From Promethearchaeota archaeon (GTDB lineage Archaea > Asgardarchaeota > Lokiarchaeia > Sigyniarchaeales > SOKP01), in assembly GCA_048940445.1 (NCBI GenBank), contig JBHLON010000022.1, positions 1 through 60,099 on the forward strand: a DNA stretch of 60,099 nucleotides, in the 5' to 3' direction. Positions 44,637 through 44,808 of the stretch are shown here, piece after piece (within the stretch, counting starts at the first letter, position 1; each line of letters opens with the position of its first letter). The translations under genes were made by a program, and so were the position numbers. The notes below the pieces were generated by a model. The model ran no database searches. It was not told the origin of the DNA and saw only the letters and a program-made list of their open reading frames with translations.

Positions 44637-44808
44637 TTAATCTGATATCTTTTCAAAGAAGCTTTTATCGACACCACATACCAGGTTTAGTTGGAGATCA
44701 ACAAAAACTTACTGGGCAAACCCAATCATCGGGTAGATCTTCCCATTTTGTGCCTTCAGCTTCTTCGTCATAGATATATCCACACGCACCACATTCATAC
44801 TTAGCCAT
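44637..44808 (-). CDS. Rubredoxin, two exons (44808-44710 and 44678-44637), 46 aa after splicing; absent from ORF track
   Basis: [33 protein letters not shown] + [13 protein letters not shown]; the second CxxC is split by a 31-nt insertion. Confidence 0.9.
44679..44709 (-). other. Candidate 31-nt bulge-helix-bulge intron in the rubredoxin mRNA
   Basis: CCAG/CUGG 4-bp helix with 3-nt bulges UA^A and UA^U, inner stem GUUU/AAAC + GUUG/CAAC, outer stem UUGC/GUGG; standard cuts restore the frame. Confidence 0.82.

Follow-up and report, generated by a model that had tools for sequence, protein, structure and literature searches.

Rubredoxin gene and gene neighbourhood

The window, which is the whole stretch of 60,099 nucleotides that was analysed, carries a rubredoxin gene of 172 nt on the minus strand (positions 44637–44808). 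Read through on that strand, the frame encodes 36 amino acids ending in CPVSFC, followed by a TGA (44700–44698) that lies within an insert of 31 nt (44679–44709). Deletion of the insert gives a 46-aa rubredoxin with the second CxxC motif restored; on both products, sequence and translation agree with an initial annotation of this DNA. Exon 1 (44710–44808, minus strand) comprises codons 1–33, with the first CxxC as well as the leading Cys of the second, and is preceded by a Shine–Dalgarno-like AGGTTG 5′ of the ATG (44816–44821), similar motifs being present 5′ of the orthologues. Exon 2 (44637–44678, minus strand) starts with the fourth iron-binding Cys and contains 13 codons and the stop codon TAA. 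Exon 1 matches Pfam family PF00301 (E=8.9e-11) over profile positions 1–39 of 47, and an intronless orthologue covers positions 1–47; the two CxxC motifs within a domain of ~45–55 aa that mark a PF00301 rubredoxin are present after splicing only. The 36-aa stub is found in public protein sets, and no Rfam family matches the rubredoxin gene. Homologous proteins bear the labels Promethearchaeota or Lokiarchaeota, together with other Asgard names, and a close relative with an insert at the same position is labelled Promethearchaeia, which would make the host a Loki-type Asgard archaeon.

The insert has the features that characterize a bulge–helix–bulge (BHB)-type intron in phase 0, which shifts the frame and contains the in-frame TGA. 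When all deletions of 1–59 nt near the junction were tested, only those of 31 nt restored the second CxxC. Over 2.8–3.1 kb, insert included, two Logan assemblies (SRR34261206 and SRR30758823) show 100% identity with the window; as these assemblies are independent, the insert is present in the DNA and is not an assembly error. The intron is single-copy in the assembly: no second copy was detected in the genome, and repeats were uninformative.

The gene lies within an oxygen-detoxification cluster (39665–47475), with synteny kept in relatives, which encodes a rubrerythrin, a desulfoferrodoxin, a flavodiiron protein of the FprA type and an NAD(P)H oxidoreductase carrying a C-terminal rubredoxin domain. 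Besides the split gene, the assembly contains no canonical free rubredoxin. Directly after the stop codon of the reductase is a divergent rubredoxin-like ORF with two CxxC motifs (45988–46125, minus strand), which has no ATG, GTG or TTG start, has an ATC or ATA behind a strong Shine–Dalgarno sequence, and is conserved in relatives. Since this ORF and the reductase-fused rubredoxin domain lie nearby, the split gene may not be essential. Orthologous rubredoxins at loci L003, L007, L009, L011, L017, L027 and L059 have apparent ATT, ATA or ATC starts behind a good Shine–Dalgarno sequence, which suggests that non-AUG starts are frequent in the genus. Beside the oxygen-defence cluster, a CooS-type CO dehydrogenase is encoded at 47690–49594 on the plus strand (TIGR01702, over the cut-off), and it is syntenic in several relatives.

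BHB geometry and predicted fold

In the minus-strand transcript, the central helix is composed of the exon strand CCAG (44712–44715) and the intron strand CUGG (44681–44684), both assigned by register comparison and alignment. It is flanked by the 5′ bulge UAA (44709–44711) and the 3′ bulge UAU (44678–44680, placed by register comparison). By the rule given in PMC2738675, EndA cleaves each bulge behind its second base, and the cuts predicted in this way coincide with the borders of the 31-nt insert. Within the insert, a stem-loop (44685–44708) is composed of GUUU/AAAC, then GUUG/CAAC, and a 5-nt loop, as judged from sequence and covariation. On the exon side, the motif (44675–44718) is closed by a stem of only 3 bp, in which 44718–44716 pair with 44677–44675 in all four intron bearers (described below). 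This exon stem, UGC/GUG with two G–U pairs, is formed by both Cys codons of the CxxC.

Five registers of the 31-nt deletion give an identical protein, and the central helix has all four of its base pairs only in the register 44679–44709. At this junction (site 1), where four registers are equivalent at the DNA level owing to a 3-nt GTA repeat, the borders are consistent with the BHB cut rule. The geometry is as the initial annotation had described it (a 4-bp helix, two 3-nt bulges, an intron stem and a G–U-rich exon stem), and its claim that cutting after the second bulge base gives the frame-restoring junction holds in the one register with the full helix. Among random genomic 31-mers placed at site 1, a BHB this good arises at a frequency of 5e-5, or of 1e-3 if the rules are relaxed.

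The BHB, while accessible, is not the lowest-energy fold predicted by ViennaRNA in this genome (G000) or in the related genome G023. In G000, the pair probability of the helix is 0.00–0.26, and over the whole coding sequence the forced BHB lies 2.2 kcal/mol above the optimum, which consists of an exon-1 hairpin and an intron/exon-2 stem. The predicted hairpin, AUUGGG/CCCAGU (44711–44726), would sequester the exon strand of the helix. The competing fold varies among bearers (helix probability 0.0–0.67, whole coding sequence), with values of 0.5–0.67 in G018 and G035. On these predicted folds, splicing may be inefficient, or binding of the enzyme or the melting of exon 1 by ribosomes may assist it.

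Orthologous rubredoxin genes

Among 36 genomes of the genus with a free rubredoxin, the same junction is occupied by an insert in four (G000, 31 nt; G018, 30 nt; G023 and G035, 32 nt each) and 32 are intronless. The 30-nt insert of G018 is in frame, yet it contains a stop codon; that of G023 is present in four JGI assemblies. The interiors of the four inserts differ, and the helix, both bulges and the intron stem are kept in all of them, and in G018, G023 and G035, too, the helix is 4/4 in the BHB register only. In an alignment of the four sequences (three clearly distinct, G023 and G035 being close, with the register set by hand), 96.4% of cells pair, compared with 27–48% in slid controls, and four of the seven intron-stem pairs change on both sides; because the sample is small and G023 and G035 are close, this covariation is support and not a probability. 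Intronless alleles and covarying BHB stems are thus both found in the orthologue comparison that the initial annotation had suggested.

In exon 2, synonymous and non-synonymous differences between intron bearers and intronless relatives number 5/0 (G000 and its sister G017), 4/0 (G018 and G021) and 5/1 (G035 and G015), and between the bearers G000 and G018 there are six synonymous and two non-synonymous differences. Judged by these codon comparisons, exon 2 is under purifying selection, unlike a dead exon.

Extra stretches of 21–24 nt in the rubredoxins of G157 and G158 are ordinary in-frame loops without a BHB. In a metagenome search, the 80 rubredoxins among the matches listed were all intronless, as full-length matches rank first. 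Intronless contigs that encode the same products as the predicted spliced ones, or nearly identical ones, were considered as cDNA and rejected, since their many synonymous differences from the bearers mark them as other species; among the Logan contigs read, none has the G000 codons minus the intron. On one metagenome contig (L372:1-490), an IS605 TnpB-like gene lies directly 5′ of an intronless rubredoxin.

A second putative intron site in rubredoxin

A 29-nt BHB-type insert is located 10 nt downstream of site 1, inside a Gly codon, in three (G128, G082 and G080) of about 70 rubredoxin copies from other genera of the family. At this second site, the Gly of the intronless members of those genera is given by the BHB register only, other registers giving Arg, Ser or Asp, and the border rule is therefore discriminating there. 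The exon stem beyond an internal loop corresponds to a relaxed form of the BHB. Taking both sites together, rubredoxin introns flank the same CxxC in seven genomes. The loci of the second site are L082, L136 and L138 (G128:C7, G082:C57 and G080:C274), and the public proteins P0077, P0079 and P0081 look like its read-through products.

Putative mini-introns in other genes

A motif-blind census, in which proteins from 2.0 Mb of the family member G109 were compared with G000 and insertions were left free, covered 1433 orthologous loci of G000 (378,653 codons). It yielded ten high-confidence frame-breaking inserts of 21–38 nt with strong alignment on both sides. Eight of the ten form a strict BHB, one has a 4-bp helix and a weaker stem, and the insert in metG has a 3/4 helix and a full stem. 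As controls, decoy lengths gave at most one BHB, and harmless in-frame inserts gave none in eight. The host genes, named by motif recognition without a profile scan, are metG, uL11 (two inserts), dnaG, and genes for an Lsm protein, mevalonate kinase, a low-molecular-weight phosphatase, a longin-like protein (two inserts) and a 474-aa protein; for most of them, the assembly gives just one strong match. The inserts are located in G000 at C10:14382, C61:8911, C61:46028, C61:46116, C67:4642, C78:74291, C84:60595, C94:59657, C94:59817 and C26:3343. With rubredoxin included, the genome would contain at least 11 such putative mini-introns in at least nine protein genes, and the census count is a floor, because short genes, terminal exons and genes that the reference lacks escape it.

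The initial annotation had proposed a genome scan for BHB motifs whose removal repairs reading frames. Run without homology, such a scan gave 131 candidates, with 131 and 116 in decoys, so the motif and an open frame alone are weak evidence; the homology-based census took its place. With site and length left free, 5211 loose matches to BHB-like motifs are found.

Splicing enzymes

Genes for two EndA subunits (C3:34241 and C62:31241) and for one RtcB are present in the genome. The catalytic EndA subunit keeps the catalytic His region (best alignment with PDB entries 3p1z/3ajv) and a Lys matching K44 of the broad-specificity loop, a loop that has been described and reported in Asgard (αβ)2 enzymes (PMC5829648). 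The second subunit, from which the His is absent, is read as structural.

Inferred gain and loss of the rubredoxin intron

In an rpoB tree of 30 genus genomes, which does not include twelve others of the genus, the nearest relatives of G000, G018 and G035 are intronless. Groups were defined by intron status before tree building, and monophyly is rejected for the four bearers (p-AU of 2e-5), for G000 with G018 (5e-6) and for G023 with G035 (6e-76). Read from this tree, the pattern needs repeated gain at the same site, transfer, or one old gain followed by many precise losses. Between G023 and G035, 28 of the 32 intron bases are shared, as are 97% of the 39 flanking bases, and here G035 is closer to G023 than to its own sisters. 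For this pair, the similarity gives a hint of transfer accompanied by co-conversion, or of loss through replacement.

The insert, with its 31 nt, does not resemble a homing (mobile) BHB intron; by motif check and window comparison only, no homing endonuclease candidate was detected among the neighbouring ORFs of the bearers, although one may act in trans. The paired Cys codons of the CxxC would provide a ready exon stem, and the motif may be a favoured site of insertion.

Proposed splicing and alternative explanations

The insert is very probably an mRNA intron spliced by EndA and RtcB, one of many in Promethearchaeia. The rubredoxin transcript would fold locally into the BHB, the (αβ)2 EndA would cut after the second base of each bulge, and RtcB would ligate the exons, restoring the second CxxC and completing the iron site. 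The resulting normal 46-aa rubredoxin would serve the neighbouring oxygen-detoxification chain. Mini-introns of this kind would be inserts that the cell tolerates, gained and lost at conserved motifs and kept because they are excised by the tRNA machinery. We infer transcription, cleavage, ligation and the history of gain and loss from genome sequences. The genome comparison, the census and the enzymes all point to a spliced rubredoxin mRNA, as the initial annotation had proposed; the redox on/off switch that it had added is unsupported, because the intron has a scattered distribution on the tree and introns of the same kind occur in housekeeping genes without a redox role.

Such a switch, with oxidative stress or a change in RNA fold gating splicing and setting the supply of rubredoxin, is unlikely. 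It would fit the position of the gene within an oxygen-defence cluster, the competing exon-1 hairpin, whose predicted stability exceeds that of the BHB, and the presence in seven genomes of rubredoxin introns at one or the other of two sites that flank the same CxxC. RtcB-family ligases are also oxidation-sensitive, as seen in the human enzyme. However, 32 of the 36 genus genomes are intronless, the nearest relatives of G000, G018 and G035 included, the same intron type in metG, uL11, dnaG and the Lsm gene would need routine splicing, and the competing fold differs among bearers (helix probability of 0.0–0.67). Loss of RtcB activity would moreover block every tRNA and mRNA intron and not that of rubredoxin alone. 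The wider idea, that splicing of mRNA by the tRNA-type route is a regulatory layer in Loki-type Asgards, with rubredoxin output set by the competing exon hairpin or by RtcB oxidation, and that the second CxxC was invaded twice on this account, is equally doubtful.

It is very unlikely that the gene is a young pseudogene, inactivated by the insertion and with an incidental hairpin. Different inserts occupy one junction in four genomes and all form a BHB, the exon 2 protein is conserved despite near-saturated synonymous sites, between bearers too, and equivalent inserts break apparently single-copy essential genes. Most relatives are indeed intronless and the other rubredoxin-like ORF could substitute; chance BHB-like motifs are also common when site and length are free (the 5211 loose matches), but at a fixed site the frequency of a chance BHB is 5e-5 to 1e-3.

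Translational bypassing, in which the ribosome would take off at the Val codon GTA preceding the insert and land on the GTA that ends it, is very improbable. The take-off and landing codons match as GTA/GTA in G000, G018 and G035 and a hairpin follows, resembling hop elements (PMC8211752). In G023, however, the pair is GTA/GTT, in the ten other G000 inserts no matched codon pair gives the right product, and at the second site a hop would place Arg, Ser or Asp at the conserved Gly. The take-off codon is followed by AGT or AAT, with no stop, and the exon–intron helix would be left unexplained.

A spliceosome-like intron is barely conceivable: one register starts with GTAAGT, which is present in G018 too, and CTAAAC resembles a branch site, but that register ends in TG and not AG, G023 and G035 read GTAAAT, the ten other inserts have no GT..AG pattern, and the GTA is the Val codon plus the bulge A. 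GTAAGT is not a spliceosomal signal, as the AG end is absent and the hexamer is not conserved. An assembly artefact, for which a draft of 139 contigs might give grounds, is practically out of the question with two Logan assemblies identical to the window and the G023 insert recovered in four JGI assemblies.

Comparison with known introns and significance

The closest known counterpart of the proposed EndA/RtcB-spliced rubredoxin intron is that of the cbf5 pre-mRNA, reportedly studied by Watanabe in 2002 and by Yoshinari in 2006. The cbf5 intron occurs in Sulfolobales and Desulfurococcales (Yokobori 2009, PMC2738675). In both genes, a short insert in the coding sequence lies at a critical residue, exon and intron together form the BHB, the borders fall at the second/third bulge base and the interior is variable; both introns are present or absent among relatives, and the host EndA is hetero-oligomeric. 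Unlike cbf5, the rubredoxin intron is found in another phylum (Promethearchaeota) and in a redox protein, it is much patchier within one genus, and at least 11 putative introns in at least nine genes of one genome stand against a single gene. The rubredoxin BHB is canonical, whereas most cbf5 BHBs have been described as unconventional. The rubredoxin intron shows every cbf5-type sequence-level feature examined; splicing of cbf5 was shown by cDNA and cleavage, whereas the rubredoxin intron is known here from DNA alone.

Repeated gains without a clear arrival route have been described for Asgard tRNA introns (bioRxiv 10.64898/2026.10.13.758758, in which the word mRNA does not occur). The rubredoxin intron resembles archaeal tRNA introns in these respects and in having the same BHB motif and size range, and differs from them in that its substrate is an mRNA. 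The BHB of Haloferax HVO_1309 (PMC7714728) is likewise an instance of EndA acting on an mRNA, but it lies in a 5′ UTR and interrupts no frame. Bypass elements (T4 gene 60 and Magnusiomyces byps; PMC8211752) are similar in being short hairpin inserts, with the matched GTA codons at site 1 as a further likeness; unlike them, the rubredoxin insert has no stop after take-off, the ten other inserts are unmatched, and the exon–intron helix is conserved.

In the searchable literature, splicing inside an archaeal coding sequence is documented for cbf5 only (PMC2738675, PMC7714728); introns in other archaeal genes were predicted and unconfirmed as of 2009 (PMC2738675). The literature searched, with most subscription journals outside its reach, yielded no description of BHB introns in protein genes of Asgard archaea, and the main text on a cultured DPANN archaeon (PMC8784108) contains no mRNA introns.

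If these introns are spliced, Lokiarchaeia would use the tRNA machinery as a matter of routine to splice many mRNAs, those of essential genes included, and Asgard annotations would contain truncated proteins and false pseudogenes. As Lokiarchaeia are close prokaryotic relatives of eukaryotes, this bears on how introns in protein genes were tolerated before the spliceosome. The Ire1/RtcB-type splicing of mRNA in eukaryotes is a parallel. Rubredoxin is a handy test case: its gene has 172 nt, alleles that bear or lack the intron occur naturally, there are two intron sites, and iron binding can serve as a readout.

In the tRNA genes of G000, many introns are at non-canonical positions (D arm) and some genes apparently contain more than one; ARAGORN with default settings reports only 13 tRNAs in this genome.
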